Below the pieces are notes generated by a model that saw nothing but the letters and a program-made list of their open reading frames with translations, was not told the origin of the DNA and searched no databases. This document shows positions 99 through 54,691 of a stretch of DNA of 64,000 nt, piece after piece. A program made the position numbers and the translations under genes. Source of the DNA: an uncultured Candidatus Saccharibacteria bacterium (GTDB taxonomy: Bacteria > Patescibacteriota > Minisyncoccia > Phycocordibacterales > JACOZG01); assembly GCA_965230925.1 (NCBI GenBank), contig OZ246403.1, positions 3,367-67,366 of the forward strand, written 5' to 3'. Each line of letters starts with the position of its first letter. The first letter of the stretch is position 1.

Positions 99-181
99 GG
101 GCGCGTGGCGGAACTGGTATACGCGTACGCTTCAGAAGCGTATGGCCTCTGGCCTTGAGAGTTCAAGTCTCTCCGCGCCCA
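99..181 (+). tRNA. tRNA-Leu (anticodon CAG), type II tRNA with long variable arm; CCA not encoded
   Basis: Cloverleaf read directly from the sequence. The acceptor stem GGGCGCG (99-105) pairs with CGCGCCC (174-180), followed by discriminator A. The anticodon arm is TACGC / TTCAGAA / GCGTA, with anticodon CAG flanked by U33 and A37. A long variable hairpin GGCC-TCT-GGCC is present. The T-arm is GAGAG / TTCAAGT / CTCTC. Confidence 0.85.
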
Positions 182-228
182 CTTTTTTCTCGGTTTTCTG
201 TGGATAAAGCCAATTTTTTCTGATCTAT

Positions 229-20772: not shown

Positions 20773-20780
20773 CCTTGATA

Positions 20781-30101: not shown

Positions 30102-30115
30102 AGAAAAAACACACT

Positions 30116-31468: not shown

Positions 31469-31501
31469 TTTTTTTGTTATGATACGCAGGTTCAAATAAT
31501 C

Positions 31502-32458
31502 ATGAAAAATTTTGTAAAAAAAATAGTAATTCGTTTGTTTTTTAGACCATTTTTTAAGATGAGAGCATCCTCGTTTGTTTATAATTACTTGAACAAAGAG
31601 GCTGTCGGTAATTATTTTAAACACAAACAGGAACTTAACAACACTGAGCGTCGTGTTGTAAACGATCTTTTACGGGACGGTATCGCGGTATCATCTTTAA
31701 AAGAGTTGTTTCCAGATAAAGAGTTGTTTTCCGTCCTGAGATCTTACGCTGACAGAATTCGGCCGCAGGGAAAAAAGAGAGAGGGAAAACCTTTTTTGGT
31801 TGCTTTGTGGGACGACAATGTTTCCCTTTCTTGGGAAAATCCTTTTACCCCGCTTTCGTTGTCCCAGGCTGTTTTAAACGTTGTGAGTGCTTATTTTTCT
31901 TTGTCAGCAAAGTTTTTTTATTATTATCTCGACGTAACATTACCAGTTGGCCAAAAGGCGACCCCTTTGAGGTCACAGAACTGGCATCGTGATCCTGAAG
32001 ACAGAAGAATGTGTAAAATGTTTGTTTATTTAAACGATGTAGATGAAAATTCCGGGCCATTTATCTATATTAAGGGATCACAGATGGGGGGGAGATATGG
32101 CAATTTTTTCCCCCAAAATCCCCCAAAGGGATCTTATCCAACCGAAGAACAGGTTTCGGTCGCTATACCGCAGAACGAAAAATTTGTTGGAACCGGAAGA
32201 GCAGGAACAGTAATTTTTGCTGACACCGCTGGACTACACCGAGGTGGTTATGCGATTTCTGGTGAAAGGTGGATGTTTACTGCTGATTATTCTTCACCTG
32301 CAGCACTTAGAAACCCGCTAAACGTGCTTCCTTCCGACTCTTTTGTTCCAGAAGAGCTCAGTCGTGACGGGCATTATGCTTTGATTCATAGTAAGAAATT
32401 TTTAGCTCGCGTAATAAACAAAATCGAGAACTTTTCTTTGAAGTATGGCCTTTATTAA
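31502..32458 (+). CDS. PhyH-like Fe(II)/2-oxoglutarate-dependent dioxygenase family protein (tentative)
   Basis: NWHRDPED...VYLNDVDENSGPFIYIKGSQ and AGTVIFADTAGLHRGG resemble the HxD...H facial triad region of phytanoyl-CoA dioxygenase-like enzymes. Confidence 0.35.
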   Translation: MKNFVKKIVIRLFFRPFFKMRASSFVYNYLNKEAVGNYFKHKQELNNTERRVVNDLLRDGIAVSSLKELFPDKELFSVLRSYADRIRPQGKKREGKPFLVALWDDNVSLSWENPFTPLSLSQAVLNVVSAYFSLSAKFFYYYLDVTLPVGQKATPLRSQNWHRDPEDRRMCKMFVYLNDVDENSGPFIYIKGSQMGGRYGNFFPQNPPKGSYPTEEQVSVAIPQNEKFVGTGRAGTVIFADTAGLHRGGYAISGERWMFTADYSSPAALRNPLNVLPSDSFVPEELSRDGHYALIHSKKFLARVINKIENFSLKYGLY

Positions 32459-33320
32459 AAGTCTCGGAGTTTTGATTGAGTGTTCTTTGTTGATTTTTTC
32501 AAAGAAACATCTCTCTTTGAAAAGAAAGTTTTCTTTGTTGCTTTGTTATTTCTCTATTGTCATAAAAAGAAAACTTAGAAGAAGATTCGGTGCTTTTTTT
32601 AATTATTCCAAACAAAGAATACTGGGATTTGACGTGTTGCTAGATAATTTTAGGGAAGATTTTTATTGGATTTTTAAAGAAATTTTTATCGAGGAAAATT
32701 ATTATTTTAAGTCCGACAGAGAAGACCCTTTTATAATTGATTGCGGGGGAAATATTGGTATCAGTGTTCTTTATTTTAAAACGATCTACCCCAAATCAAA
32801 GATTATTACTTTTGAGCCAAACCCCAGTAATCTTAAGTTGCTTAATGAAAACTTGAAAAAAAACGCAATTGTTGGTGTTAAGGTTTATGATCTTGCCCTG
32901 GGCGCACGTGACGGATCGGTAGATTTTTTCACACATGGCCCTGGAACTACCATGTACGAAGAGTTTTCAATAAAACAAAAAAAGGTTAATCTGGACGAGG
33001 CTGGTTTGAAGGTAAAGGCAAAGATTGTGCGGCTGTCCCCTTATGTGTCTCAAAGGGTTGATTATTTGAAGTTGGACGTGGAGGGGGCTGAGAGCGATAT
33101 TTTGTGTGAATTGAAAGACTCGGGGTCCCTTTCTAAGGTTGATAGAATTGGTATGGAGTATCACCAGTTTTCTTCGAGCACCAACAAGTTGTCAGTTGTT
33201 GCCAACGTGTTGGAAGAAGGAAACTTTTTCTTTTTTTGTGCAAGCGGTGCCCGTAACCTTTCCGAGCCAGTAAAAAGTAATTACAAAACTTTTATGATTT
33301 TTGCTTCTAGAAACAGATGA
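32445..33320 (+). CDS. FkbM family methyltransferase (Methyltransf_21), paralog 1
   Basis: IIDCGGNIGISVLYF...ITFEPNP.N...YLKLDVEGAESDIL. Confidence 0.6.
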   Translation: MAFIKSLGVLIECSLLIFSKKHLSLKRKFSLLLCYFSIVIKRKLRRRFGAFFNYSKQRILGFDVLLDNFREDFYWIFKEIFIEENYYFKSDREDPFIIDCGGNIGISVLYFKTIYPKSKIITFEPNPSNLKLLNENLKKNAIVGVKVYDLALGARDGSVDFFTHGPGTTMYEEFSIKQKKVNLDEAGLKVKAKIVRLSPYVSQRVDYLKLDVEGAESDILCELKDSGSLSKVDRIGMEYHQFSSSTNKLSVVANVLEEGNFFFFCASGARNLSEPVKSNYKTFMIFASRNR

Positions 33321-34159
33321 CCTCCCCTTTTTTAATTTTAAGTCAGTTTTTCACCGTAATCAAGAAAAGACACCTGTCGATTCCTAAACGTTTTTCTTTG
33401 CTTAGCTTGTATTTGAAGATTTTGATTGAGAGATTTATTAGGGGGAGGGTTCCGGGGTTCTTTTCAGAAAGTTCCACCAACTTTTTGTTTTCAAGGATTA
33501 ATTTTTGCCGGTTTGATGATTTTTTTTGGACTTTTATTTCTGTTTTTATTGACGAGGAGTATTATTTTAAAACGAACAAAAAATCCCCACAAATCATAGA
33601 TTGTGGAGGTAATATAGGTCTCGTGGTTCTTTATTTTAAGTGGATTTACCCCCTTTCTCGTGTGACCGTGTTTGAGCCAATAGAAGAAAATACAAAATGT
33701 TTAGAAAAAAACACCAGCTCTCTTTCTGGTGTCAGGCTAATTAATGCTGCTGTTTCTGGTAATGATGGGTACGTTGATATTTATGGTGTTGGGAGGGCGG
33801 CAACAATTGACCCAAACTTTATAAAACTAAAAGGACAGATAAAACAAAACGACAGAACAAAGAGGGTCAGTGTAGTAACGGAAAAGTTGTCAAAATATAT
33901 TGACAGCGAGGTTGATTACTTGAAAATTGACATTGAGGGTGCGGAGGGTGAGGTGATTGAAGAGCTGGCCGCCAGTGACAAGTTAAAAATGGTTGATCGT
34001 GTTGGTATGGAATACCATCATTATTCTTTGTCAGAAAATCGTCTTTCAGAAATAATAAAACATCTTGAGCTGGCCGATTTTAATGTTTCCTTTTCAGGGA
34101 ACGGCTCACTGCCAAGCTGGAGGTATTATAATTTCATGTTATATGCCAAGAGAAATTAA
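33317..34159 (+). CDS. FkbM family methyltransferase (Methyltransf_21), paralog 2 (tandem duplicate)
   Basis: IIDCGGNIGLVVLYF...VFEPIEEN...YLKIDIEGAEGEVI. Collinear with the previous gene. Confidence 0.6.
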   Translation: MTSPFLILSQFFTVIKKRHLSIPKRFSLLSLYLKILIERFIRGRVPGFFSESSTNFLFSRINFCRFDDFFWTFISVFIDEEYYFKTNKKSPQIIDCGGNIGLVVLYFKWIYPLSRVTVFEPIEENTKCLEKNTSSLSGVRLINAAVSGNDGYVDIYGVGRAATIDPNFIKLKGQIKQNDRTKRVSVVTEKLSKYIDSEVDYLKIDIEGAEGEVIEELAASDKLKMVDRVGMEYHHYSLSENRLSEIIKHLELADFNVSFSGNGSLPSWRYYNFMLYAKRN

Positions 34160-35528
34160 GACAATTTTCATTACGGTGTCAAAAGACATTATTCGTCGGA
34201 ACATTCTGGATACCGATTTTTGGCAATTTTTTGTTAACGCAAACGTTAATAACAAAATTGTATTGCTTGTTGATAAGGGGCGTGAAGGTTATTACCGAGA
34301 GCGTTTTAATGGAACTAATGTTGTGGTAGAGGGATACGAACGCCAACCTCACCAGGGTTGGCGAAAACTTTTGTTTTTTCTTGCTCGAACTGGCATTCGT
34401 TCAAAAAGTAACACCTTTCATAGATGGCATGCTTATAAGAGGGGGAGGGCCTCGCTTGCGGTGACATTGTTGAAAAGCCTAGTTTCCAACACTTTTGTTC
34501 GGTGCGGTTGGTATAAAAAACTAATTAGATTGCTGATTCTAAAAACGCGGTCACCTCGAACAATTGAAAAAATATTTGAAACACATAAACCAAGTGTTGT
34601 TTTTACCCCATCTCTCATTGATGCCGACTTCGATGCCCCTTTTGCTGTTGAAGCAAAAAAAAGAAGAATATCAGTTGTGGGAATGGTCAGGAGTTGGGAT
34701 AACCTCAATCATCACGGGTTACTTACGGTTGTGCCAAATCATTTTGTCTTTCAAAACAAATGGCTCAAGTACGCGAGCAGGTATTTCCAGGCGGTTGAAA
34801 TTGAAAAAATTGAGACCACCATTATCGGTCTTCCTCACTATGATAGATACAAAAACCCCGGAGCAGTTTTGAAAGATCGAACATCTTTTTTTGAAAGTGT
34901 GGGTTTAGATCCAGATAAAAGACTAATCTTTTTGGGGGGTTCCGAATATTATTACAGTGAGGATTCTCTTGTGCGATGGTTGAACGAAATGATTGAGTCG
35001 AAGCAATTGAAACAGCCAGCCCAAGTTATGTTTAGGATGCACCCAAGCTCTATTTTTAAGGTTGAAGATTTTAGGCTGGAAAATTTACCCCACATTGTTC
35101 TAGACACTGCAACAACGCAAAAAGATGGTAGTCCGATTTTTACGGACACGGAGAAGTTTGTTAATTTGTTGTACTATTCTGATGTAACAATTAACATCGG
35201 GTCAACCCTTTCTATTGACGCTTCCGCTTTTGATCGTCCGGCTATTGCTATTGATTTTGATGACCCAGCAAAAAATTTGTCATATTGGGAATCAGTAAAG
35301 CGTTTTAACGATTATTTTGACCATCAAGTACGTTTGTTGCAGACAGGGGGAGTGAGCACTCCAGGTTCGCTGGGGCAACTAATACAATCAATTAACAATT
35401 ATTTTGAAAACCCGTTGCGTGACAATGAAGGAAGAAAGAAAGTTCTCGAAGAGTTTGCCGCCCCTTTCGATGGTAAGGCGGGGGAACGGCTAGCGTCCAC
35501 CTTCGATTCAACCTTAAATCAAACTTGA
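34143..35528 (+). CDS. CDP-glycerol glycerophosphotransferase-like (TagB/TagF family) protein (tentative; track ORF starts at 34065)
   Basis: The C-terminal motif VNLLYYSDVTINIGSTLSIDASAFDRPAIAIDFDD resembles Glyphos_transf (ITDYSS..fDf....kP). Confidence 0.35.
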   Translation: MPREIKTIFITVSKDIIRRNILDTDFWQFFVNANVNNKIVLLVDKGREGYYRERFNGTNVVVEGYERQPHQGWRKLLFFLARTGIRSKSNTFHRWHAYKRGRASLAVTLLKSLVSNTFVRCGWYKKLIRLLILKTRSPRTIEKIFETHKPSVVFTPSLIDADFDAPFAVEAKKRRISVVGMVRSWDNLNHHGLLTVVPNHFVFQNKWLKYASRYFQAVEIEKIETTIIGLPHYDRYKNPGAVLKDRTSFFESVGLDPDKRLIFLGGSEYYYSEDSLVRWLNEMIESKQLKQPAQVMFRMHPSSIFKVEDFRLENLPHIVLDTATTQKDGSPIFTDTEKFVNLLYYSDVTINIGSTLSIDASAFDRPAIAIDFDDPAKNLSYWESVKRFNDYFDHQVRLLQTGGVSTPGSLGQLIQSINNYFENPLRDNEGRKKVLEEFAAPFDGKAGERLASTFDSTLNQT

Positions 35529-35543
35529 CCAGAGTCTACTTAT

Positions 35544-36686
35544 GTGCTAGTGTGTAGGGGCACTAGCTCGGTGCTGGTGTGTTTTTCCGCGATGGGTCGC
35601 GGTGGATTGTCCTTTGAGAATTTGGAGGTGTTTGTGGCCAAGATTGTTTTGGTGGCTCGTGATGCCGCACCATCAGGTTGTTTCAGTCGTCTAGAACCCG
35701 TCCTTAGAGAACGTGGGTTTGAGGTAGAGCTTTTTGTGGGAGCGGGTAAGCCGCTTGTTCAATCTGTTAAACGGATTGAACAAGCCACCTCTGTTTCTAC
35801 GATTGTTCTTCTGGGCATGTCATCCTCAGCTGAACTGGCTGAACCAGAGCTTGTTGCTGGGCGTTCTGCTTTGGAAGCCGGCATACGTTACGGTTTCTAT
35901 GGAGACGTGCCGCGGTGTTGGGCACGAGCCCGTCCCGGAGCTTGGTTCGAGGAGCTGGCCAGTAGCACGTCATTTTATCTTGGTATTACTGATAATGATG
36001 CTGAGGGTGCTCGGGAGGTGTTTACCTCTGCTCTCTGTGTTGGCACTGGTAATCCGCTCCGCGAGGACATGGCCTTCCCACGTCTAACGCGAGAAGATGT
36101 GCGGAAAAAACTCGGAGTCAGTGACGAACATAAGTTGATCTTAGCCTCTGGCGATAAATTTGCCGCTGGGAACATGGTTACGTGGGCGACACTGATAGGA
36201 ACGATCCTTCGTTTCAAGGAGCAGGAAATTCAGCTCCTGTTAACTCTCCATCCTGGAGATCGCACGGACCTGAAGCTTTACGACGAACTTGTTGAGTTAA
36301 GTTCTGTGCCAACGAGGATTATCCCGAGAGATGTCTTAACTGGTTCGGAAATGATCCCGGGCGTCGATCTGGTGGTAGACTTTGGTGGTTCGATAGGGAT
36401 TGAGGCGGCGTACTCTCGTGTTCCGGTGATCAGTTTGGAGTTCGAGGTTTTGTTTATTAGCCTTGAGCGTAAGAATGGTAACCGTCTGCGCGAGGCGGTG
36501 GAAGCAGGTGCTGCAATGGGTGTTGACCCTGCTGGTTTGGAGGAAGCTATCCGCCTTCTCCTCGGTCCTGAAGGAGTCGCAAATATGAAAAAGCGACAGG
36601 AGACCTCTTATCCAAAACCGATTGAGAGGGGCGTAGCCCTCAAGAGGATCGCTGACGCCATCACACGAATTGCGCAGGTGGAATAG
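35544..36686 (+). CDS. Hypothetical GT-B-fold-like protein (possible glycosyltransferase or UDP-sugar 2-epimerase-like) in the higher-GC island (alternative start 35592)
   Basis: KIVLVARDAAPSG ... DLVVDFGGSIGIEAAYSRVPVISLE is reminiscent of GT-B C-terminal nucleotide-sugar-binding folds. No firm family. Confidence 0.25.
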   Translation: MLVCRGTSSVLVCFSAMGRGGLSFENLEVFVAKIVLVARDAAPSGCFSRLEPVLRERGFEVELFVGAGKPLVQSVKRIEQATSVSTIVLLGMSSSAELAEPELVAGRSALEAGIRYGFYGDVPRCWARARPGAWFEELASSTSFYLGITDNDAEGAREVFTSALCVGTGNPLREDMAFPRLTREDVRKKLGVSDEHKLILASGDKFAAGNMVTWATLIGTILRFKEQEIQLLLTLHPGDRTDLKLYDELVELSSVPTRIIPRDVLTGSEMIPGVDLVVDFGGSIGIEAAYSRVPVISLEFEVLFISLERKNGNRLREAVEAGAAMGVDPAGLEEAIRLLLGPEGVANMKKRQETSYPKPIERGVALKRIADAITRIAQVE

Positions 36687-36715
36687 TTCAAAGTCAGTCG
36701 TTTCGGTATATTCTA

Positions 36716-36746
36716 GAGGCCCGATCTTTCGGGCCTCTTTATTTTT
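36716..36746 (+). terminator. Rho-independent terminator (GAGGCCCGA-tcttt-CGGGCCTC followed by TTTATTTTT)
   Basis: An 8-9-bp GC-rich stem followed by a T-rich run. Confidence 0.6.
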
Positions 36747-37176
36747 GATTTGAAAGGGGAACTTTTATGAGAATTAAACGCGCTGTGCCAGATGAGCTGT
36801 CTTGGTGGGGGACGCCGGCTGAGACCCATAGCCATTCTCCTTGGCGTAGAACGTGTTCGGTGCCGCCGTGCATTAATTTTGCTTTAAGTTCGTTCGGATC
36901 ATCATTCCCGTTCGATTGTTTAACGTGCCGTGGTTCTATTAATTCTCCTCCACACCTGAAAGTTACTTCACCCTCTAAACAAAACCAAAGATCAGCTTCT
37001 CTCATGTGTACCTCAGCCTCGTTGTTTTCAGTTTGATGGTTTTCTATAATTTTTATTGGCAAATTATTTTCTTTTGCAAAGGTGCGGAACGGTTCAAGAC
37101 TTTTTTTGCCAGGAGTTGATGTTACCGCCAGAGTCTCTTCGACTTGTTTTTTTGTGATATGGACGACCGTGTTCAT
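36739..37176 (-). CDS. Cupin-domain protein (ORF extends to 37221)
   Basis: EVHMREADLWFCLEGEVTFRCGGE...LRQGEWLWVSAGVPHQ fits a cupin beta-barrel. Confidence 0.4.
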   Translation of the reverse strand: MNTVVHITKKQVEETLAVTSTPGKKSLEPFRTFAKENNLPIKIIENHQTENNEAEVHMREADLWFCLEGEVTFRCGGELIEPRHVKQSNGNDDPNELKAKLMHGGTEHVLRQGEWLWVSAGVPHQDSSSGTARLILIKVPLSNQK

Positions 37177-37309
37177 AATATTTATTTTAGCAGTCCGCAG
37201 GAGGCGACGCACTCTGGACAAAAAATTAAAGAGGTGTTATGTTGGTCGTCTGCCCGGAGTGTTCTGGGTAAGCGTTTTTCGCGAACGGGTCGTGAGAGTA
37301 ACTTGAAAA

Positions 37310-38338
37310 TTGAGGAGAGATCACTTGGATCAACGAAACATAATCGTTGTTTGTCTAATGCTTGCTACGGCCCTTTTTATTGGCTGTCACGGTGTGATTC
37401 AGAGATGGATGTTTCGAGATAAAAGATTCTCGCAACGCGAAGTCTTAATCTGGCAGAATGTGGTGGCGGCGGGTATCTTTCTCGCGGTGGCGCTTTCCAC
37501 TGACTTTGGTGTTGACCCCCTTGCCCAGCATAACCTGGTCTTTTGGGGGGCAATCTCGCTTACCACAATTGCTAACATTGGCATCCAATCAGCCAACGCT
37601 TACGCACGCGGGTTGGCTGAAGTTTCGTTAACTTCGCCGATTCAGGCGCTAACACCGGCTTTGGTAACTGTTGCAGCCTTGTTGTTGAAGGAGTTGCCGT
37701 CAGCGGTTGGTGTAGTGGGTATTCTGATGATCAGTTTTGGAATCTTTGTTCACCTGAACGAGAGTGCCGAACACTGGCGCGACTACTTGCGGCCATTTAA
37801 GTTGTGGCGGCTGCCACCCAATTACCCACAATTGGGGTCGGAGGAAAAACGTTGGGCGCGCAATAATCGTCGAGCACTTATTCTATCGTACGTCTCGGCC
37901 GTTCTTGGGACAGTTGGCTTACTTGGTGACAGTGTTTCCTCGCGTACTGGTAATGTTGCCATCGGTTTTACGGTACACCTCGCGGTTTTGGCTCTTGTTT
38001 TTGCGGTTGTTTTGCCGCGGAACCATCAGCTGTCGTTAGAAGTGACCAAGCCAGTTGGTTGGCGTTATTGGTTACCGGTTGTCGCGGCCGGAGCAGTGTT
38101 TGCCTTGGTTGTACTTTTACCTCTGATTGCTTTTCGGTTTGCACCCGTGGCGTATGTTGGCTCACTAAAGCGTTTGGGTATTTTGGCCACGGTCATTCTT
38201 GGTTGGTTGTTCTTAGGCGAAGTCAAGGCAAAGCGTCGTTTGATACCAGCAACCATTGTGGTTATTGGGGCTATGTTGCTGTTCTTTGACCCGGCTTCTA
38301 GGAAGATTGTTGAGGCTGCGGCAGAGACGTTCAAGTGA
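37310..38338 (+). CDS. EamA/DMT-superfamily membrane transporter (about 10 TM)
   Basis: Polytopic and hydrophobic with an internal two-domain repeat of TM bundles. Could be a nucleotide-sugar or metabolite transporter. Confidence 0.4.
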   Translation: MRRDHLDQRNIIVVCLMLATALFIGCHGVIQRWMFRDKRFSQREVLIWQNVVAAGIFLAVALSTDFGVDPLAQHNLVFWGAISLTTIANIGIQSANAYARGLAEVSLTSPIQALTPALVTVAALLLKELPSAVGVVGILMISFGIFVHLNESAEHWRDYLRPFKLWRLPPNYPQLGSEEKRWARNNRRALILSYVSAVLGTVGLLGDSVSSRTGNVAIGFTVHLAVLALVFAVVLPRNHQLSLEVTKPVGWRYWLPVVAAGAVFALVVLLPLIAFRFAPVAYVGSLKRLGILATVILGWLFLGEVKAKRRLIPATIVVIGAMLLFFDPASRKIVEAAAETFK

Positions 38339-38426
38339 AATTGGTTCGGAGGTTTTAACCCACAGGGCTTGCTGTAAGCGAGCCCTTTTTGTTGCTCGTA
38401 AACGGAGAATTTGTTATTTTGATGAT

Positions 38427-39110
38427 ATGCAAAACAAATTTACCGCGGTTGTTCCTGCGCGCGGGGGCAGCCGTCGACTAAAGGATAAACACACTATTCC
38501 ATATGCTGGGAGCAATCTTTTAATCCACAAGATTCGTCAGCTAAAGAGGGTTGAGTCAATTGATAGTATTGTGGTTTCATCAGACTCAGACACGATGCTT
38601 GAAATGGCCAAAAATGAAGGGGTGCTGACTCACAAAAGATCTCCAGAATACTGTGATGAAGAAACAAAAAGTTTCGGTGAGGTGGTCAAGCATGTTTGTG
38701 AGAGTGTGGTGGGAGAAAACATTGTTTGGGCGCAGTGCACTTCACCCTTGGTGGTGCCGTCCCAATATAAAGATACAATTAGTGTTTATTTGGATAATTT
38801 AGGCAAACATGATTCTCTTGCTTCGGTTGAGGCGTTCAGAAGGCATCTTTGGGATGACAACGGCCCGGTTAATTACGAAAGAGGTAAGATGCATCCGCCA
38901 TCACAGAAGTTGCCTCAAATGTATTTCGTAACGGGGGTTTTTATTGCTCCTCGTAAAAAAATGATTGAGTGGTATCACAACATTGGCCCCAATCCCTATA
39001 AATACATTTTACCGAGGACAAGTTGCGTTGACATTGATGATGAGCTAGACTTTGATTTGGCTAAGCTCTGGCACGATAGGGCGTGTGATTGTTTGGTGAA
39101 AGGAAAATAA
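38427..39110 (+). CDS. Acylneuraminate (nonulosonic acid) cytidylyltransferase family protein (CTP_transf_3; NeuA/PseF/KdsB-like)
   Basis: N-terminus AVVPARGGSRRLKDKHTIPYAGSNLLIHKI is the hallmark of CMP-sugar synthetases of this family. Confidence 0.6.
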   Translation: MQNKFTAVVPARGGSRRLKDKHTIPYAGSNLLIHKIRQLKRVESIDSIVVSSDSDTMLEMAKNEGVLTHKRSPEYCDEETKSFGEVVKHVCESVVGENIVWAQCTSPLVVPSQYKDTISVYLDNLGKHDSLASVEAFRRHLWDDNGPVNYERGKMHPPSQKLPQMYFVTGVFIAPRKKMIEWYHNIGPNPYKYILPRTSCVDIDDELDFDLAKLWHDRACDCLVKGK

Positions 39111-39112
39111 AT

Positions 39113-39775
39113 ATGGCAATAAAAGTCGTGTCCTTTGATTTTGATGGGGTTTTTGTTCTTGATTCGGATGCTGTGTTCAAGAAAGAAGCTTGGGGAATTG
39201 TCTTTGAAGGTTACGGAGAAGGCCGTTATCGACCCCTTCTTGATGAGGGTAATCGGCGGTATGGCTCAGGTAAGCCGGGGGGGCGAGTAGAAATCATGGC
39301 ATATGTTTTTGCTGGATTGGGTAAACCTGAAATGGAAATACCGGGCCTTGTTGAAGAAGCAGCCAAGGTGTTCGACAATCATGTTCAGGCCAGAATTTTA
39401 GAGGCTGGCTTAGTGTCGGGGACACGAGAAGCCCTTGAAGAGTTAAGACGTCGAGGCCTTTCTTTATATCTTAATTCTGGAACTGCCACTAGGGCTCTCG
39501 AGCTTAGTGCCCGCAACCTTAACATCTCCCAGTTCTTTGGTGGTATTTTTGGAAGCACAAGGGGCAAGACAGACAATCTTCGGACAATGTCCGAACGGGA
39601 GTCTGTTGGGCCACAAGAAATTTTAGTGGTTGGAGATGGTGATTCTGATAGGGTTGCTGCCGAAGAGTTCGGAGCGCCTTTTCTGGGGGTAGCCAATCGT
39701 TGGAATAAGTGGGCGAATACAAAAAAAGAATTCCCTCTCATTGACCACTTGTCCCAAGTTTGTCAATTTGTTTAA
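39113..39775 (+). CDS. HAD-superfamily hydrolase/phosphatase
   Basis: Motif I VVSFDFDGVFV (DxDG). C-terminal motif GDGDSD. Confidence 0.6.
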   Translation: MAIKVVSFDFDGVFVLDSDAVFKKEAWGIVFEGYGEGRYRPLLDEGNRRYGSGKPGGRVEIMAYVFAGLGKPEMEIPGLVEEAAKVFDNHVQARILEAGLVSGTREALEELRRRGLSLYLNSGTATRALELSARNLNISQFFGGIFGSTRGKTDNLRTMSERESVGPQEILVVGDGDSDRVAAEEFGAPFLGVANRWNKWANTKKEFPLIDHLSQVCQFV

Positions 39776-39835
39776 TCTTGAGGAGTGGTCAACCGTTGTG
39801 GCCGCTCCTTTTTGTTTGTGGTAGGATAAAGTCCT

Positions 39836-40933
39836 ATGAGTATTTCTTTAACCACCAACATTAAAAGATTGTTTAGTTTATTGCCAGCCAAAGTAAAAAT
39901 TCAAGATTTTTATGTTGGCGAAGGACGACCCGTTTTTGTGGTTGCGGAGATAGGCAACAACCATAATGGAGATTTTAATTTAGCTCTCAAAACAATTTTG
40001 GCGGCAAAAGAGTCTGGTGCCAATGCGGTTAAATTTCAAAGGCGAACGGTAGACGAGGTCTTCACTAAAGAAATGCGAGATATGCCTTATAATAATCCGC
40101 GATCATTGGCGCCCACCTACGGGGAGCACAGAGAAAAGCTGGAATTTTCTCCTCAGCAGTTGGTTGGTCTTAAGGATTATGCCGAAGATCTTGGCTTGGT
40201 GTTCTTCGTAACTCCCTTTGACCAAAAAAGCGCGGATTTTTTAGAGTCAATTGATGTGCATGCGTATAAGATCTCCTCTTTTGATGTTACCAACTTGCCG
40301 CTCCTAGAACACGTTGCCAAGAAGAACAAACCAATTTTGTTGTCAACCGGCATGTCGACCATCGAGGAAATCGACCAAGCAATCGAATGCATATTGTCCT
40401 ACAATAATCGTTTAATTGTGAATCATTGCACCTCTATTTATCCAACGCCAGATGATAAGATTGATCTCCAGATAGTTCAAACACTAACCGAGCGTTATCG
40501 ACCTCTTCCGGTTGGCTACTCTGGCCACGAGCCTGATATTTTGCCAACTATTATGTCGGTTGGGTTGGGGGCAAAAACAGTGGAGCGTCATTTTACTTTA
40601 GATAAGAACATGCGCGGATCCGACCATCACATGTCTATTGAACCTTCAGAATTTAAAAAAATGGTTGACCGAATTCGCCGGGCTGAGGTTTTTTTGGGTT
40701 CTTCTAAGAAACAAATACACGAACAAGAAGTGCCTATAAGAGAAAAGCACGCCAAAAGCATTGTGACAAAAAGAGAAATTAAAAAAGGAGAAACCATTAC
40801 AAAGGACGCAGTTTCTTTCAAAAGCCCTGGTTATGGTTTTAAACCAGCCCTTCTTCACCGTGTTGTTGGTCGGAAGGCGAACCAAGACTTGCCTGTTGAT
40901 ACGGTGATCCTAGAGAAGTTTTTGGGTTCTTAG
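39836..40933 (+). CDS. neuB: N-acetylneuraminate (nonulosonic acid) synthase, NeuB/PseI/LegI family with a C-terminal SAF domain
   Basis: VAEIGNNHNGDFNLALKTILAAKESGANAVKFQ. HCTSIYPTP. C-terminal SAF domain KREIKKGETITKDAVSFKSPGYG. Confidence 0.7.
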   Translation: MSISLTTNIKRLFSLLPAKVKIQDFYVGEGRPVFVVAEIGNNHNGDFNLALKTILAAKESGANAVKFQRRTVDEVFTKEMRDMPYNNPRSLAPTYGEHREKLEFSPQQLVGLKDYAEDLGLVFFVTPFDQKSADFLESIDVHAYKISSFDVTNLPLLEHVAKKNKPILLSTGMSTIEEIDQAIECILSYNNRLIVNHCTSIYPTPDDKIDLQIVQTLTERYRPLPVGYSGHEPDILPTIMSVGLGAKTVERHFTLDKNMRGSDHHMSIEPSEFKKMVDRIRRAEVFLGSSKKQIHEQEVPIREKHAKSIVTKREIKKGETITKDAVSFKSPGYGFKPALLHRVVGRKANQDLPVDTVILEKFLGS

Positions 40934-42314
40934 GTTTTTTCCATTTTTCTATTAAAAAAACCAAACCATATCCCCCGAACACAAAAATAATAGGAGTTGC
41001 TTTGTAGCGGTGTCGCCCGTGATCACTAAAACCAACTGAGATTGTTCCGAGCCAATAAATAACCACTAGGGTTGCTAAGAAAAAGGCCACAAACCTTCTG
41101 GGGTTGTTTTTTTTACTCGCCGTGATAATCCCCACCAGCATTAAAATTGTTATCGTGATCCAAAGGAGTCTTCCCGCAACTGGAACTGTAGCTAAAAATC
41201 CCATTAGGTTCCAAACCCTAGTCATTAGTTCTATAGGACCATCTTTTAGGAGAACTAAGGAAGGAGAAAAAGATAGTTCTATGTTTTTTATTATCCCGTA
41301 GTGTCTCAGATAGGTCGTATATAAGTCTTGAGTGAAAAATGTCATGGTGTTTATAAACAAAACCCCAACCCCTTCTGCTGGGTTTTCCAAAACGATCTTC
41401 CAGCCCTCTTGAACCAAGAGTTTGCCCAGCCCCGGGTCGGTTGTTATGACATCCTCGTCCACGGTGTATTTCTGAGAAAAATCTAGCCTGAGTTGTTTTT
41501 GAACCTCGTGGATAGGTTGGCCAGTCTTGAGACTGATTATAGATGGGGCCAAACTCGAATAAACGTTTCTTATTCCCGTTGTCGCGATTGAGGCGGAGCC
41601 AAAACGGACGTGGTTTCTTACCAACCAGGGTGAGACGACCATGAAAAAAGTAAAAGTAAACACAAGGAAAGTCATACCAAGTCCGGGGTGAACCATCTTC
41701 TTTTTGAACGATTTGACGACAAAAAAACATAACATCACTATGCAGATAAGCACAGAAATATAATAAGTTTCTGGTCTGGTTAATGAGGATAGACCAAGAA
41801 GCAAACCAGCCAAAGCGACGTTTTTCCATGTTGGCTCTTGAAAAACTCTAGTTAAGAGGAAAATTCCAGCTGCACCAAGGAATGTTGCGATGGTGTCTGT
41901 AAGTAAGGTTGTGCTCAGGTAAATTGAAAGTGGTTCAAAAGCCATCAAAAAAGCAGCAAAATTGGCCGCCCGGTAATTGTTTGAAAGGGCAAATCCAATT
42001 TTCCACACAAAGAGAACCGTTAGAGATGCAAGGGTTACTTGTAATAAGAGGAGCGGTACGATTGAACCACTTAGTCCAACCGAGATTGCGATAAGAAAGG
42101 GGTAAAATGGGGGAAAGCGACTTCCTGGGATAAAAGGCGCAGCTGTTTCTTGAGAAAAGCCGTGTCCAGAAAGTAGGTTTATTCCTGTTTGGTAAAATCC
42201 CCACGAGTCAGACAAAAAGAAACCCTCAGAACCAGAGCCGTTGTAAATTGCGAGTAGTAGCAGCAATCTTATTAACAGGGCCAGGCAAACAATTAAGACC
42301 ACGCGTTTTATCAT
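40839..42314 (-). CDS. ArnT/PMT-like GT-C (GT39/GT83-type) polytopic membrane glycosyltransferase. Its 3' end overlaps neuB convergently by about 95 nt.
   Basis: About 12 TM. The N-terminus MIKRVVLIVCLALLIRLLLLLAIYNGSGSEGFFLSDSWGFY is typical of ArnT/PMT_2 family proteins. Confidence 0.5.
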   Translation of the reverse strand: MIKRVVLIVCLALLIRLLLLLAIYNGSGSEGFFLSDSWGFYQTGINLLSGHGFSQETAAPFIPGSRFPPFYPFLIAISVGLSGSIVPLLLLQVTLASLTVLFVWKIGFALSNNYRAANFAAFLMAFEPLSIYLSTTLLTDTIATFLGAAGIFLLTRVFQEPTWKNVALAGLLLGLSSLTRPETYYISVLICIVMLCFFVVKSFKKKMVHPGLGMTFLVFTFTFFMVVSPWLVRNHVRFGSASIATTGIRNVYSSLAPSIISLKTGQPIHEVQKQLRLDFSQKYTVDEDVITTDPGLGKLLVQEGWKIVLENPAEGVGVLFINTMTFFTQDLYTTYLRHYGIIKNIELSFSPSLVLLKDGPIELMTRVWNLMGFLATVPVAGRLLWITITILMLVGIITASKKNNPRRFVAFFLATLVVIYWLGTISVGFSDHGRHRYKATPIIFVFGGYGLVFLIEKWKKPKNPKTSLGSPYQQASLGSPSDQQHGEEGLV

Positions 42315-42364
42315 ATTCAGATTTTAACCCAACACGGCCGGCGGGAAGGATTGATTTTTTTTCG

Positions 42365-43315
42365 ATGGCATGCTTTATTATTGTTATGTTGTCAGTGGTT
42401 GTTCCGTTTTATAACGAAGAAAAAACGGTCGGTGAATTGCACCGGGGTATTTTTTCTGCCTTAAGTAATATGGGGGTGGGTTTCGAAATAATCTTTATTG
42501 ATGATGGTTCTACAGATGACACTTGGGTGGAGATCAAAAAGTTAAACAAGGTGATAGCCGTTCGTCTAAAGAGGAATTTTGGTCAGACGGTTGCTTTGAG
42601 CCATGGTTTGGCGCGAGTAAAAAATGAAATTGTTGTGACTATGGATAGCGATCTTGAAAATTTACCCGAAGATATTCCCCGTTTAGTGGCTAAACTAAAG
42701 GAAGGCTACGATGTGGTTTGTGGTTGGAGAAAAAACAGGTGGTCTCAAGAGTTTTTCACAAGAAAGCTACCGTCTTATTTTGCCAACCTTTTTATCTCTG
42801 TGGTGAGCGGTGTTAATTTACACGATCATGGTTGCGGGTTGAGGGCCTACAAAAGAAAGGTTTTTGAGGATGTCAGTTTCAATGGAGACATGCACAGAAT
42901 GTTGGCAATATATCTAGGAATAAACGGATCAAAAATAGTTGAAATTCCGGTTTCCTTTGTTCCTAGAAAACACGGGGTTTCGAAGTATGGTCTTTCTCGT
43001 ACTTTCAAGGTGATCTTGGACATAGTAGCTTTCTTTTTCTTTAAAAAGTTTTCTAACCGACCAATGCATTTCTTTGGATATTTCGGTTTTATAAGCATTG
43101 GTTTGGGGTTTTTGGCCTTTCTGTATTCATTATACTTAAAATTTTTTGAAGCAACCCAATTGAACCGCACCCCTCTTCCTGAGCTGGTTGCCATTCTTGT
43201 CGTTGTTGGGTTCCAGTTTGTGCTAATGGGGCTTGTGGCAGAATTAATTACTAGGTCTGGGCCCAAAAGTGGTAAAATAAACCAGGATGAAGTTGGAGAA
43301 GAAATCCACAATTGA
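42365..43315 (+). CDS. GT2 glycosyltransferase, polyprenyl-phosphate sugar synthase type (ArnC/DPM1-like) with C-terminal TM helices (track ORF starts at 42248)
   Basis: LSVVVPFYNEE...FEIIFIDDGSTDDT...MDSDLEN(P): D..DD..D and DxD motifs. Two C-terminal TM helices as in ArnC/GtrB. Confidence 0.65.
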   Translation: MACFIIVMLSVVVPFYNEEKTVGELHRGIFSALSNMGVGFEIIFIDDGSTDDTWVEIKKLNKVIAVRLKRNFGQTVALSHGLARVKNEIVVTMDSDLENLPEDIPRLVAKLKEGYDVVCGWRKNRWSQEFFTRKLPSYFANLFISVVSGVNLHDHGCGLRAYKRKVFEDVSFNGDMHRMLAIYLGINGSKIVEIPVSFVPRKHGVSKYGLSRTFKVILDIVAFFFFKKFSNRPMHFFGYFGFISIGLGFLAFLYSLYLKFFEATQLNRTPLPELVAILVVVGFQFVLMGLVAELITRSGPKSGKINQDEVGEEIHN

Positions 43316-43529
43316 TCTCTTGAAAAAAATTCCTCTGGTGAATTTTTTTTGGGAAAAAAGCTTTTTCCATTACCTGTGGACGGGTGGAGTTTTTACGGTT
43401 TTAAATATCTTTTTAGTTTGGTTACTAATTGATTTTTTGAAGGTTCCAACCATAGTTTCCACAACCGTTGTAATCGGGGGCTTGTTTGTATTAAGATACG
43501 TTTTTTATCGGTGGTTAAAAATTTTGTAA
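43287..43529 (+). CDS. GtrA-family small membrane protein (putative lipid-linked sugar translocase subunit)
   Basis: 80 aa. HYLWTGGVFTVLNIFLVWLLIDFLKVPTIVSTTVVIGGLFVLRYVFYRW matches GtrA-like proteins. Immediately downstream of the GT2 gene. Confidence 0.55.
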   Translation: MKLEKKSTIDLLKKIPLVNFFWEKSFFHYLWTGGVFTVLNIFLVWLLIDFLKVPTIVSTTVVIGGLFVLRYVFYRWLKIL

Positions 43530-44900: not shown

Positions 44901-47093
44901 ATGAAAAACGTTTTACGCTCTTTAACCCTAGGGATAATTTTTGTCGTACCGTTTGTACCCCTGATGGTTACCGAGTCTTTATTTTTTCCTTTTATTACCG
45001 GTAAGAACTTTGGGTTTCGGATTATTGTAGAAATCCTTGTTGTTTTGTGGCTTATTCTTGCCTTGCGAGATCAGGCTTATCGGCCACGACGTTCAGGAAT
45101 TCTTTGGGCGGCTATTGCTACGGTGGGCTTTTTAATCCTTGCCACTATTTTTGGTCTTAATCCTTACCGCAGTTTCTGGTCTAACTTTGAGCGCATGGAG
45201 GGCCTTATTACCCACCTCCATCTTTTTGCCTACTTCTTGATTTTGATTTCAGTACTTAAAACAGAAAAGCTGTGGTCCTGGTTTGCCCATTCTTCTTTGG
45301 TGGCAAATCTAATGGTGGGTGTTTATGCTTCATATCAACTTGCTGACAAATTGCTTATTAATCAAGGTGGTGCGCGCGTGGATGCTACTTTTGGTAATGC
45401 CACTTACCTTGCGGTTTATGAGATTTTCCACATTTTTTTACTTGTTTTCTTAATTTTGCGACCGAGATTAAAATCTACCATAACCGGCGTATGGTGGCTT
45501 CGGGTTGGATATTTAGCCCTGCTTGTTCTAGACCTTATTTTACTTTACAAGACCGCCACCCGCGGAGCCGTGCTCGGTCTTATTGGAGGGGTATTTCTTT
45601 CCGGTCTTCTCATTGGGGTTTTCGAGCGTGATAATCGTTGGATTAAGAAAATGGGTTTGGGGTTTGTGGCCGCAGTAATTGTTCTCGTCGGAGTCTTTTT
45701 GGCCTGGCGTGATACTGACTTTGTTCGCGAAAGTCCGGTATTGAGACGTTTCGCCACTATTTCATTGAATGATTCTAACGCCCGTCTTCTCATTTGGAAT
45801 ATGAGTTGGGAGGGCTTCAAAGAGCGGCCAATTCTTGGGTGGGGACCAGAGAATTATCCTCTTGTTTTCAATAAATATTATGATCCGCGAATGTACAACC
45901 AAGAACAATGGTTTGACCGTTCACACAACGTAATTTTTGATTGGTTAATTACCGCTGGCATCCTCGGTCTTCTGGCCTATCTTTCACTTTATCTTACTGC
46001 GCTTTATTGCTTGTGGCGACGGGCAAGTCCTTTTAGTGTTACCGAAAGATCGTTGTTCACCGGTCTCCTTGCTGCCTATTTCTTCCATAATATTTTTGTT
46101 TTCGATAACCTGATTAGTTATTTACTTTTCTTTGCTCTTTTGGCCTATTTCCATGTTCGAAGCGTCGAGAATGTGGGTAGTTCTGTGTGGATCAAGAAAA
46201 ATTTTTCATATCCCACACAAACCATTGCGTCGGTTGCGGTGGGGATTGTTGTTCTTTTCTGTCTCTATTCTTTTAATCTTAAGCCCATTCTTGCCGGACA
46301 AACCCTCATTCAAACACTAAGCACTCAAGACGCTAATCAGAAAATTACTTTACTCGAGAAGGTGTTTACCTACAACACCTTTGTTTCTACTGAAGCAAGT
46401 GAGCAAGCGGTTTCTGTGGCTTCCCAGGCCGCAGGGTTCAAAGACCTGCCGGGGGAAATAAAACAAAAATTTGCCACTCTTGCTTTGCAAGAAATTGATA
46501 ACTCTATCAATCGTGATCCAGAAAATGCTCGGTACCATTTGTTCCGGGGTTCGCTTTTAACCCGCTTTGGTCAGTTTGAAGATGCAGAAAAGAGTCTCCT
46601 GAAGGCAAAGGAACTTTCACCCAAGAAACAAACATTGATTTTTGAACTTGGTAATTTGTACTTAGCAAAAGGGGATAACCCCAAGGCTATTGCTATTTTC
46701 AAAGAAGCCTTTGAGCTAGAACCTCGCTTTGAAGAGGCGAGACGTGCATACGCTATTGCTGCAATTCTAACGGGCGACAATAAGCTTGCTGACGAAATTA
46801 TTTCCGGAAGTACAAACCCAAATTTTACCGTTGACGATCGCTTTATTAACGCTTATGCCGCGACTAAGCAGTTTTCTAAACTTTTAACTTTGTGGCAAAA
46901 GAAGGTGGAAAATGAGCCAGAAAACGCGCTGTCTCGAACCTCGCTAGCCATGGCTTATTGGGCCAACAATCAGCGCACTAACGCTATCACTGAGTTCCGT
47001 AAGGCCGCTGAGCTGGATCCGAAGTTGCAAATAGAAGTTGATAAAACGATTAAGGTGATTCAGGACGGTGTTCGCTTCGACCAAGTTAAATAA
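44901..47093 (+). CDS. O-antigen ligase (Wzy_C) family polytopic membrane protein with C-terminal TPR repeats
   Basis: N-terminal region with about 10-12 TM and a Wzy_C-like large periplasmic loop. C-terminal FRGSLLTRFGQFEDAEKSLLKAKEL / GNLYLAKGDNPKAIAIFKEAFELEP TPR units. Confidence 0.55.
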   Translation: MKNVLRSLTLGIIFVVPFVPLMVTESLFFPFITGKNFGFRIIVEILVVLWLILALRDQAYRPRRSGILWAAIATVGFLILATIFGLNPYRSFWSNFERMEGLITHLHLFAYFLILISVLKTEKLWSWFAHSSLVANLMVGVYASYQLADKLLINQGGARVDATFGNATYLAVYEIFHIFLLVFLILRPRLKSTITGVWWLRVGYLALLVLDLILLYKTATRGAVLGLIGGVFLSGLLIGVFERDNRWIKKMGLGFVAAVIVLVGVFLAWRDTDFVRESPVLRRFATISLNDSNARLLIWNMSWEGFKERPILGWGPENYPLVFNKYYDPRMYNQEQWFDRSHNVIFDWLITAGILGLLAYLSLYLTALYCLWRRASPFSVTERSLFTGLLAAYFFHNIFVFDNLISYLLFFALLAYFHVRSVENVGSSVWIKKNFSYPTQTIASVAVGIVVLFCLYSFNLKPILAGQTLIQTLSTQDANQKITLLEKVFTYNTFVSTEASEQAVSVASQAAGFKDLPGEIKQKFATLALQEIDNSINRDPENARYHLFRGSLLTRFGQFEDAEKSLLKAKELSPKKQTLIFELGNLYLAKGDNPKAIAIFKEAFELEPRFEEARRAYAIAAILTGDNKLADEIISGSTNPNFTVDDRFINAYAATKQFSKLLTLWQKKVENEPENALSRTSLAMAYWANNQRTNAITEFRKAAELDPKLQIEVDKTIKVIQDGVRFDQVK

Positions 47094-54670: not shown

Positions 54671-54691
54671 TTAGGTCACAACTGAATATTG

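Follow-up and report, generated by a model that had tools for sequence, protein, structure and literature searches.

A putative nonulosonic acid biosynthesis and transfer module, probably resident, in a surface-glycan locus of Patescibacteria

The stretch of DNA analysed here, 64 kb in length and called the window throughout, carries at 35544-40933 a set of genes for a sialic-acid-like (nonulosonic acid) pathway, among them that of a NeuB-family synthase, and the set belongs to a surface-glycan locus that spans ~22.4 to 47.1 kb according to Pfam scans of the window's open reading frames (ORFs). We regard it as probable that these genes represent a resident module for nonulosonic acid biosynthesis and transfer in a Wzx/Wzy-type surface-glycan locus of a Patescibacteria genome (candidate phyla radiation, CPR; Paceibacterota-like). 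Family assignments, conserved synteny, a CPR-only phylogeny of the synthase and a background-like base composition carry this reading, whereas the steps of the pathway are predicted. A preliminary description of the same DNA had listed six products, namely a NeuB synthase with SAF domain, a CTP_transf_3 cytidylyltransferase, a HAD phosphatase, an EamA/DMT transporter, a cupin and a GT-B-like protein, and all six were confirmed (Pfam; an AlphaFold model with GT-B fold for the last; a Cupin_2 score of 27.0 bits for the cupin, just under the 27.2 cut-off). The capacity for sugars of the sialic-acid type activated with cytidine monophosphate (CMP), which it had attributed to the glycan locus, likewise holds at the level of the synthase, cytidylyltransferase and phosphatase families. 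It had, in addition, read a step in GC content as the edge of a horizontally acquired island, and the main value of the present work lies in the correction of this point: the stretch has a normal composition, and it is the adjacent AT-rich glycosyltransferase block that is unusual.

The window also carries MurD and MurC (15.5-19.4 kb), SecA (49.6-52.1 kb), a tRNA-Leu and two giant surface proteins, and is a piece of a cellular genome. Named close homologues of its products come from Paceibacterota, Adlerbacteria, Buchananbacteria, Colwellbacteria, Niyogibacteria and Harrisonbacteria (Patescibacteria/CPR), the lone other name being that of a 2.6-kb contig labelled Binatia, which appeared in the search with a 350-aa GT-B-fold protein of the region.

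Base composition, gene order and phylogeny

The GC step is real. At 35.3-35.5 kb the GC fraction rises by 0.10, the largest change in the window when adjacent 2-kb segments are compared, and the contrast drawn earlier with the flanking AT-rich genes is correct. What does not hold is that the region is GC-rich relative to its background, since its GC is 0.467, while the window as a whole has 0.4536, the part at 1-24 kb 0.4835, that at 41-64 kb 0.4537 and the sequence outside the glycan block 0.47; among equal-size windows it stands at the 59th percentile, and at the 36th once the glycan block is dropped from the background. Within the region only the genes of the 350-aa protein (0.52) and of the EamA transporter (0.50) are GC-rich, partly through the first and second codon positions (GC1 and GC2), i.e., through amino-acid composition, and the NeuB gene has a GC of 0.42. 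At third codon positions (GC3) the NeuB, HAD and cupin genes range from 0.38 to 0.41, similar to the flanks, and the six genes of the region average 0.43 vs 0.46 for ten housekeeping-type genes (p=0.37). The eleven genes at 24.4-35.5 kb, with a mean GC3 of 0.36, differ from both of these groups (p=0.002 vs core), and the synonymous codon usage of the region is intermediate between core genes and this AT-rich block. The compositional outlier is therefore the block at 24001-35543, comprising eleven glycosyltransferase, methyltransferase and flippase genes with a GC of 0.385, and not the nonulosonate region. Low GC is common in variable surface-polysaccharide genes, and the step at 35.4 kb is likely the point where an AT-rich, variable stretch of glycosyltransferase genes stops rather than the edge of acquired DNA.

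For comparison, we read ten further loci whose NeuB is 52-75% identical to that of the window (L004, L020-L024 and L103-L107), plus one found via the 350-aa protein (L108). The gene order of L108 is identical to that of the window: FkbM, transferase, two extra genes, a 359-aa protein, cupin (minus strand), EamA, CTP_transf_3, HAD and NeuB, followed by PMT_2 (minus strand), a family 2 glycosyltransferase (GT2), a small ORF, a methyltransferase and a Wzy_C/TPR protein. Identities are 56-80%, and the same genes are GC-richer. In L104 the FkbM, transferase, CTP_transf_3, HAD and NeuB genes are contiguous and precede Wzy_C/TPR and SecA, and in L021, L022 and L107 NeuB lies a few kb upstream of Wzy_C/TPR, with MurB present or not, and then SecA. 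Among the relatives, the identity to the window of SecA (58-67%) is comparable to that of NeuB (53-73%). All named NeuB homologues at 52-75% identity belong to Patescibacteria, and in a neighbour-joining tree of 62 homologues the window sequence and seven relatives form a clade in 200 of 200 bootstraps; a wider 13-member CPR group was recovered in 178 of 200, its nearest outsider standing at a distance of 0.96. A metagenome scan built on the NeuB alignment used very generic peptide patterns and returned mostly loci of other phyla at 36-46% identity; its contribution to the clade is limited to L023 and L024, and its other-phyla loci served as outgroup only. The phylogeny, which the preliminary description had proposed as a means of detecting discordance with the host lineage, has no cross-phylum discordance, and the clade is CPR-only.

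An island by which a sialic-acid-type pathway was imported into the glycan locus from another lineage has thus become highly improbable and is largely refuted. The sharp step of +0.10, the window's maximum, and the two genes at 0.50-0.52 would suit such an origin, but GC and GC3 of the region as a whole are at background level, the GC3 of the NeuB, HAD and cupin genes resembles that of the flanks, and in L108, with the same order at 56-80% identity, the same genes are enriched in GC, which points to an effect of protein composition or to an old arrangement. The 350-aa protein, EamA and cupin genes are missing from most relatives' loci and the module variants are incongruent with SecA, as an import might also leave them; against this, NeuB falls within the CPR-only clade and the position of the locus beside SecA is kept in the relatives. 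Among the window's ORFs and Pfam hits there is no integrase or transposase, nor was a tRNA or direct-repeat boundary seen, although no dedicated repeat search was run. Furthermore, the conserved transferase-CTP-HAD-NeuB unit straddles the GC boundary, because the linked transferase (34143-35528) sits in the AT-rich block, and the limits first proposed for the region miss this gene. The preliminary description had itself named GC and codon usage indistinguishable from the background as the outcome that would contradict horizontal acquisition, and this is what was found, together with the same site in relatives.

Two points nevertheless weigh against a strictly resident module. The compositional background is the 64-kb window alone, and in the pair L021 and L022 SecA is 77% identical, NeuB 66% and the transferase 31%, with accessory genes that differ as well. 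Exchange of cassette variants among relatives is likely to have taken place, judging from this disagreement of the NeuB and transferase identities with SecA. Glycan loci typically undergo such replacement of cassettes while the site stays the same; the GC step itself is no evidence of it. Nothing points to import from another phylum, and the gene histories make it a good deal more plausible than otherwise that the module has been inherited within the lineage.

Table 1. Features of the window discussed in the text
Feature	Position	Strand	Basis or remark
tRNA-Leu	99-182		Sole tRNA in window
Two tandem FkbM-family methyltransferases, 291 and 280 aa	32445-34159	+	Methyltransf_21 1.5e-11, 8e-12
TagB/TagF- and BFO_1060-like GT-B transferase, 461 aa; proposed CMP-nonulosonate transferase	34143-35528	+	NCBIfam, synteny
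Patescibacteria-specific GT-B-fold protein, 350 aa	35634-36686	+	380 aa if GTG at 35544 used
Metal-binding cupin, 145 aa, distantly YhcH/NanQ (DUF386)-like	36739-37176	-	Pfam, AlphaFold2/Foldseek
EamA/DMT membrane transporter, 337 aa, ~10 transmembrane segments	37325-38338	+	Pfam EamA 6e-12, two repeats; hydropathy
CTP_transf_3 cytidylyltransferase, 227 aa; putative CMP-nonulosonate synthetase	38427-39110	+	Pfam, PDB
HAD-IA phosphatase, 220 aa; proposed nonulosonate-9-phosphate phosphatase	39113-39775	+	Pfam, motifs, synteny
NeuB-family nonulosonic acid synthase with C-terminal SAF, 365 aa, D134/S314 class	39836-40933	+	Pfam, NCBIfam, PDB
GT-C PMT_2 protein	40839-42314	-	Pfam PMT_2 9e-11
ArnC-like GT2	42386-43315	+	Glycos_transf_2 1e-32; NF007986 172 bits
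GtrA-like membrane ORF, 80 aa, overlapping GT2	43287-43529	+	GtrA_DPMS_TM E 3.8e-4

The synthase and the predicted pathway

The synthase matches Pfam NeuB (PF03102) over its full length with 268 bits (9e-80) and SAF (PF08666) with 31.9 bits (2e-7). Among the NCBIfam models it reaches 332 bits with NeuB_NnaB (TIGR03569), below the cut-off of 399.65, and 270 bits with PseI (TIGR03586), below 340.25; no KdsA model matched, and DAHP synthase models scored 20-30 bits. In the PDB it is equidistant from SpsE, PseI and the NeuB of Neisseria meningitidis (NmNeuB), all at ~1e-48 to 1e-54. The ligands of the metal and of phosphoenolpyruvate (PEP), mapped by alignment to 1xuu on NmNeuB E25, K53, Q55, K129, S132, H215, E234, H236 and D247, are kept as E38, K66, Q68, K145, S148, H231, E250, H252 and D263 and are invariant in a 40-sequence alignment of the clade. 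Two other positions are changed: E134 of NmNeuB is D150, invariant in the clade, and R314, whose place was fixed by the aligned mutant chains 4ipi (R314A) and 4ipj (R314K), is S330, a position at which the clade has S, I or G. The two positions covary among 61 homologues, 45 of which combine D with a residue other than Arg and 7 E with R, the latter including bona fide PseI. A large survey singles out two striking changes in eukaryotic NanS, which uses N-acetylmannosamine-6-phosphate (ManNAc-6-P), namely E134D and a Val in place of R314, and in its passage citing Joseph et al. 2013 describes Arg314 as essential in NmNeuB (PMC8208679). Arg314 belongs to the SAF domain and contacts the substrate. 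The window's NeuB accordingly has the pair of changes, E134D and loss of Arg314, that distinguishes enzymes of the NanS or Kdn-9-phosphate synthase type (Kdn, ketodeoxynonulosonic acid), and it lacks what defines an N-acetylneuraminate synthase sensu stricto, i.e., the TIGR03569 score, Arg314 and Glu134. As for PseI, the TIGR03586 score is missed and no PseB, PseC, PseH or PseG gene occurs in the window.

These comparisons also settle, as far as profiles can, the question raised earlier of whether the synthase is rather a KDO-8-P synthase (KDO, 3-deoxy-D-manno-octulosonic acid) or a DAHP-type enzyme, with the cluster making CMP-Kdo for a lipopolysaccharide-like core. The weak DAHP synthase matches of 20-30 bits and the KdsB matches of the cytidylyltransferase at 19-38 bits are what could be adduced for it; with 268 bits for Pfam NeuB plus SAF, 270-332 bits for the NeuB and PseI models vs at most 30 for DAHP, no KdsA match and PDB matches that are all sialate, pseudaminic acid (Pse) or legionaminic acid (Leg) synthases, this alternative is already refuted and is given practically no weight.

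Several relatives shed light on the clade from other sides. A natural fusion of NeuB plus SAF with CTP_transf_3 (P0024, 621 aa), 65% identical to the window NeuB, supports a functional coupling of the two activities. In L106, from Candidatus Buchananbacteria (GCA_013359225.1), a complete-looking pseudaminic acid cluster at 495-9077 encodes DegT, CTP_transf_3, a PseI of 474 bits (above the cut-off) and GNAT, and a NeuB of the window's clade follows 4 kb downstream; the presence of both a true PseI and a clade NeuB in one locus means that the clade is functionally distinct from PseI, and the two synthase types presumably coexist without being redundant. In L020 (11462-15654), L103 (9079-13339), L106 (9080-14677) and L023, the clade NeuB precedes genes for a short-chain dehydrogenase, an aldehyde dehydrogenase and a full-length transketolase, and these loci also encode a second type of CTP_transf_3; an unusual precursor or acyl group of the nonulosonate may come from this combination.

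The cytidylyltransferase matches PF02348 at 9.5e-14 (52.2 bits vs a gathering score of 22.6), and its best PDB matches are the CMP-N-acetylneuraminic acid (CMP-Neu5Ac) synthetases 1eyr and 1qwj. An assignment to NeuA, PseF or KdsB, as had been suggested, did not succeed: PseF is the best NCBIfam model with 67 bits (cut-off 205.7) and the KdsB models come lower with 19-38 bits (cut-offs 155-281), and no equivalog cut-off is reached. The enzyme is encoded at the same position in L108 (80% identity) and L104 (64%). In L021 the interval between called genes directly before HAD and NeuB contains, at 6937-7080, a 48-aa stretch 73% identical to it; as the locus lacks a complete CTP_transf_3 gene, the stretch is probably a decayed copy.

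The phosphatase scores above the cut-offs with Pfam Hydrolase (1e-11) and HAD_2 (3e-9), and its NCBIfam matches are weak and phosphoglycolate-phosphatase-like. The translation contains all four HAD motifs, FDFDG, NSGT, RGK and GDGDSD. A phosphatase adjoins NeuB in 7 of the 12 clade loci, and it belongs to two different HAD types. The capped HAD-IA type occurs in the window, L108, L104, L021, L004 and L024, the homologues lying directly upstream of NeuB; L020 and L103 have a KdsC-type phosphatase, the best model of which, the Kdn-9-phosphate phosphatase NF058599, scores 82 and 74 bits, below the cut-off of 180. That cut-off is exceeded in L029 (236 bits) and in the Bacteroidia locus L018, where an equivalog-level Kdn-9-phosphate phosphatase (252 bits) is paired with a NeuB of the D/S type. 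Since the function is kept while the HAD family has been swapped, dephosphorylation would be a step of the pathway. NeuC, PseBCHG, LegBCHG and the aminotransferase, N-acetyltransferase and 4,6-dehydratase typical of Pse and Leg synthesis were not found by Pfam and NCBIfam scans anywhere in the 64 kb.

On the grounds of the NanS-type positions of NeuB, the adjacent phosphatase of two types, the pairing in L018 and the lack of NeuC, Pse or Leg genes in the window, we lean, by a little, towards a phosphorylated route of the eukaryotic or Bacteroides kind. The NeuB-family synthase would condense PEP with a 6-phospho-hexose and the adjacent HAD phosphatase would strip the 9-phosphate from the product, whereupon the NanQ-like cupin may accelerate its open/pyranose interconversion, the CTP_transf_3 enzyme would form the CMP-sugar and the TagB/BFO_1060-like GT-B enzyme encoded just upstream would add the sugar to the glycan; the two FkbM methyltransferases may decorate the sugar or the glycan. 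The most parsimonious product would be Kdn, made from mannose-6-phosphate (Man-6-P) via Kdn-9-phosphate, and the alternative is Neu5Ac, made from ManNAc-6-P via Neu5Ac-9-phosphate; we name Kdn as a tentative candidate, with considerable doubt. The route from Man-6-P and PEP through Kdn-9-phosphate and Kdn to CMP-Kdn is established in Bacteroides thetaiotaomicron and Prymnesium (PMC6200933).

Obviously, a number of observations weigh against this route. The window's HAD protein does not match NF058599 (the BT1713 type), and no specific similarity to a sialate phosphatase in the PDB was found for it. Over all loci fetched, phosphatases of the types that could be detected are not significantly enriched near D134-type NeuB (8/29 vs 1/8, Fisher p=0.65), and the argument from the phosphatase is therefore an argument from the CPR clade only, in which, moreover, 5 of the 12 loci have no adjacent phosphatase. 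HAD-IA enzymes can be mutases too, the Bacteroidia Kdn-type enzyme, at 35% identity, is not a nearer relative of NeuB than NmNeuB is, and the substrate is a prediction.

The classical, non-phosphorylated route, in which free ManNAc or a 2,4-diacetamido-2,4,6-trideoxyhexose would be condensed with PEP to give Neu5Ac, legionaminic or pseudaminic acid, strikes us as unlikely, though it deserves to be weighed. The HAD protein would then be unrelated, a housekeeping phosphatase or mutase, and ManNAc could come from the 350-aa WecB-like protein, acting as a divergent NeuC or LegG. NeuB_NnaB is indeed the top NCBIfam match of the synthase at 332 bits, the nearest solved structures are SpsE of the Leg pathway, PseI and NmNeuB, and PseF is the best model of the cytidylyltransferase, but every equivalog cut-off is missed, and the changes of Arg314 to Ser and of E134 to Asp place the synthase outside the separate class of E/R enzymes (7 E/R vs 45 D/non-R). 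In its fold the 350-aa protein resembles UDP-GlcNAc 2-epimerases, and it keeps the equivalent of His213; it lacks, however, D95, E117 and E131, and its family is present in a heptose-type locus that has no NeuB. Other CPR genomes do carry a Pse cluster, as L106 does, yet the aminotransferase, N-acetyltransferase and 4,6-dehydratase genes that usually go with Pse or Leg are absent from the 64-kb window, and the position of the phosphatase has been kept by two different HAD families.

The closest known systems for the favoured phosphorylated route are the Kdn pathways of B. thetaiotaomicron (BT1714, Kdn-9-phosphate synthase; BT1713, Kdn-9-phosphate phosphatase; and a CMP-Kdn synthetase) and Prymnesium parvum (PMC6200933), along with the vertebrate route. 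As in the former two, a NeuB-family synthase, a HAD phosphatase and a CTP_transf_3 enzyme are encoded together and an enzyme that forms ManNAc is lacking. In L020 and L103, whose NeuB proteins are the closest relatives of the window NeuB, the KdsC-type phosphatase has the BT1713 family as its best model, and the D134/S314 signature recurs in the NeuB of the Bacteroidia locus that encodes a BT1713 homologue of equivalog level. In contrast to Bacteroides, the window's phosphatase is a capped HAD-IA protein instead of the cap-less KdsC/YrbI type, its NeuB shares no more than ~35% identity with that of Bacteroidia, there are additional genes for a NanQ-like cupin, for EamA and for a WecB-like GT-B protein, and the substrate is a prediction from sequence. 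With the vertebrate NANS/NANP/CMAS enzymes the proposed pathway would share the reaction of a 6-phospho-sugar with PEP to a 9-phospho product and its dephosphorylation by a HAD enzyme before CMP activation, NANP being a HAD-IA enzyme; unlike that route, it has no GNE-type epimerase/kinase, and NeuB sits in a bacterial CPR clade. The likeness extends to the residues of eukaryotic NanS as published in PMC8208679, E134 being Asp and R314 lost (Val in eukaryotes, Ser here). The NeuC-NeuB-NeuA system of Escherichia coli K1 and N. meningitidis shares the NeuB fold, the metal and PEP ligands, SAF and CTP_transf_3, with CMP-Neu5Ac synthetases nearest in the PDB, but differs in that here TIGR03569 is missed (332 vs 399.65), Arg314 and Glu134 are not kept, no catalytically competent NeuC is present and a phosphatase is.

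Nonulosonate synthases are widespread in environmental bacteria (PMC8208679), and the presence of such genes here is for that reason unsurprising; our literature searches found no paper on nonulosonic or sialic acid synthesis in CPR/Patescibacteria. The CPR clade of NeuB, with Asp134, without Arg314 and with a phosphatase alongside, yields the testable prediction that these episymbiotic bacteria of reduced metabolism make Kdn-type sugars from hexose phosphates of central metabolism. A broader idea, which we offer as a possibility that could well prove wrong, is that many Paceibacterota-type CPR bacteria, with genomes of ~0.7 Mb, build Kdn or a different sugar of the sialic-acid type by a eukaryote-like phosphorylated route that employs a NanS-type NeuB and an interchangeable 9-phosphate phosphatase, has recruited a metallo-anomerase of the NanQ/DUF386 kind and relies on a TagB-like transferase to attach the sugar. 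Under the same idea, S-layer or giant fibre proteins could be the acceptors, by way of the conserved Wzy_C/TPR protein beside SecA. The TagB-like transferase, the DUF386-like cupin and the Patescibacteria-specific WecB-fold family without epimerase residues are candidates for new activities in the assembly of sialic-acid-like glycans.

Transferase, cupin, transporter and the 350-aa protein

The transferase upstream of the GC step belongs, on synteny and profile evidence, to the functional unit of the nonulosonate genes, as it adjoins CTP_transf_3 or NeuB in nine relatives' loci. Its family has a conserved R-x-HP motif and a Glyphos_transf (TagB/TagF) Pfam match in 5 of 11 members, the best at 2e-9. 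BFO_1060 is an orthologue of transferases for Pse and Leg derivatives that are genetically proven in Tannerella forsythia and have a TagB-like domain and an HP motif (Tanf_01245, TFUB4_00887 and BFO_1060; PMC5420450), and the setting of a TagB-like GT-B gene beside nonulosonate genes, with the HP motif and a BFO_1060 match, recalls the nonulosonic acid O-glycosylation of that organism. What separates the two is the strength of the match to the BFO_1060 family NF046086 (E 1.3e-9, 37.6 bits, far below the cut-off of 200; 57 bits for the homologue in L107) and the use by the Tannerella enzymes of Pse or Leg from full pathways that the window does not encode. The weak NF046086 score and a homologue in L109, a locus without NeuB, weigh against the proposed role. 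A profile of the family found only marginal epimerase matches (E 0.04), and PDB searches with the sequences themselves gave nothing for either the 461-aa transferase or the 350-aa protein and, for the cupin, only a non-significant cupin match (E 0.68). The FkbM genes adjoin transferase, CTP or NeuB genes in L104, L021, L108, L020, L103 and L106.

YhcH/NanQ is a zinc-dependent Neu5Ac anomerase (PMC8141875). The AlphaFold2 model of the window's cupin has a pLDDT of 95.7, and its top Foldseek matches in the PDB are YjgK (9jrr), HP1029 (4tsd) and YhcH (1s4c), DUF386 proteins taking ranks 1-4 and 6; residues E55, H57, D62 and H124 are invariant, and a profile alignment (hhalign) with E. coli NanQ brings the AE[VL]H and PG.PH motifs into register (E 1.7e-4). 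From the fold, the cupin may equilibrate the product of the synthase for CMP activation, a sugar isomerase being the rival role. The link to DUF386 is weak, and this tells against the first of these roles: the full-length alignment to PF04074 scores 16.6 bits (E 0.008) against a cut-off of 26.5, hhalign gives a probability of 49%, the TM-scores are only 0.52-0.57, and D-lyxose isomerase and phosphomannose isomerase are also among the fold matches. With NanQ itself the protein has in common a small metal-binding beta-barrel and a context of sialic-acid genes, but NanQ belongs to catabolic nan operons and this is a biosynthetic locus, in which the cupin gene runs against the direction of its neighbours; the cupins encoded beside NeuB in other relatives are of a different family. 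An identity of the window's cupin with the cupins beside NeuB in L020, L022 and L105 was considered and rejected, as these are of a different family (no tblastn match; hhalign 30%).

The EamA transporter is encoded at the same place in L108 with 60% identity. A role as flippase of the neighbouring GT2/GT-C system is weakened by the GtrA-like ORF beside the GT2 gene.

The 350-aa protein belongs to no Pfam family, and all 97 of its homologues that carry a name are from Patescibacteria, except the one contig labelled Binatia. Its AlphaFold2 model (pLDDT 96) has a GT-B fold, and the top Foldseek matches are UDP-GlcNAc 2-epimerases (1f6d, 5enz and 9cm8) mixed with GT4 enzymes, at E ~1e-11 and TM-scores of 0.6-0.69. 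Aligned with E. coli WecB (hhalign probability 94%), it keeps H213 as an invariant H206-P207, whereas D95 is replaced by Ser63, E117 falls within a deletion and Arg takes the place of E131; we take these three to be catalytic acid/base residues of WecB. The TIGR00236 score is 16 bits (cut-off 210), and the family is also represented in L109, a glycan locus of the heptose type that has no NeuB. The idea that this protein is the missing NeuC or LegG was considered and rejected, on account of the absent catalytic residues and of the occurrence in L109; from its modelled fold, it is probably a glycosyltransferase or a nucleotide-sugar-handling enzyme of the glycan locus and not NeuC.

The remainder of the glycan locus

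Besides the nonulosonate genes, the locus contains GT4 glycosyltransferases, an NAD-dependent epimerase, a GT47-like enzyme, methyltransferases including the two of FkbM type, a Wzx flippase, a GT-C/GT2/GtrA-like trio and a protein with Wzy_C and TPR. The trio at 40839-43529 looks like a separate glycan-modification module, of the three-component GtrABC/ArnCT type that works with polyprenyl-phosphate sugars, and its PMT_2/GT2/small-ORF arrangement is the same in L108. At 40839-40933 the 3' ends of the minus-strand PMT_2 gene and of the NeuB gene overlap by 95 nt; in L108 the overlap is only 6 nt, so that PMT_2 of the window is extended at its C-terminus by a tail encoded antisense to NeuB.

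The Wzy_C protein (44901-47093, 730 aa; O-antigen ligase-like, with C-terminal TPR repeats) is kept directly upstream of SecA in every relative examined, with orthologues in L104, L107, L021, L022 and L108. Wzy_C domains occur in PglL-type O-oligosaccharyltransferases too, and the protein could attach the glycan to proteins; as such an O-oligosaccharyltransferase it might extend the resemblance to T. forsythia O-glycosylation.

Both giant ORFs, at 248-10894 (3548 aa) and 54689-59992 (1767 aa, with LVIVD repeats), have a Peptidase_S74 match near the C-terminus (E 1.7e-9 and 6.9e-11, respectively). The preliminary description had remarked that the fibre proteins carry, by coincidence, the chaperone domain of endosialidases, and this agrees with the matches; the domain being a general fibre-folding module, the link to sialic acid is one of name only.

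Immediately upstream of the glycan locus, at 20775-22430, lies a gene for a VirD4/TraG-like coupling ATPase (T4SS-DNA_transf, TrwB_AAD_bind). A GT4 glycosyltransferase follows as two overlapping ORFs, 22427-22966 for the N-terminal half (Glyco_transf_4, 179 aa) and 22963-23508 for the C-terminal half (Glycos_transf_1, 181 aa), which is either a frameshifted pseudogene or a truly split gene. Finally, a 318-aa ORF at 31502-32458 has a weak match to PhyH dioxygenases (E 0.002) and homologues at 36-37% identity in the glycan loci of L021 and L107, and may encode a sugar-modifying oxygenase.

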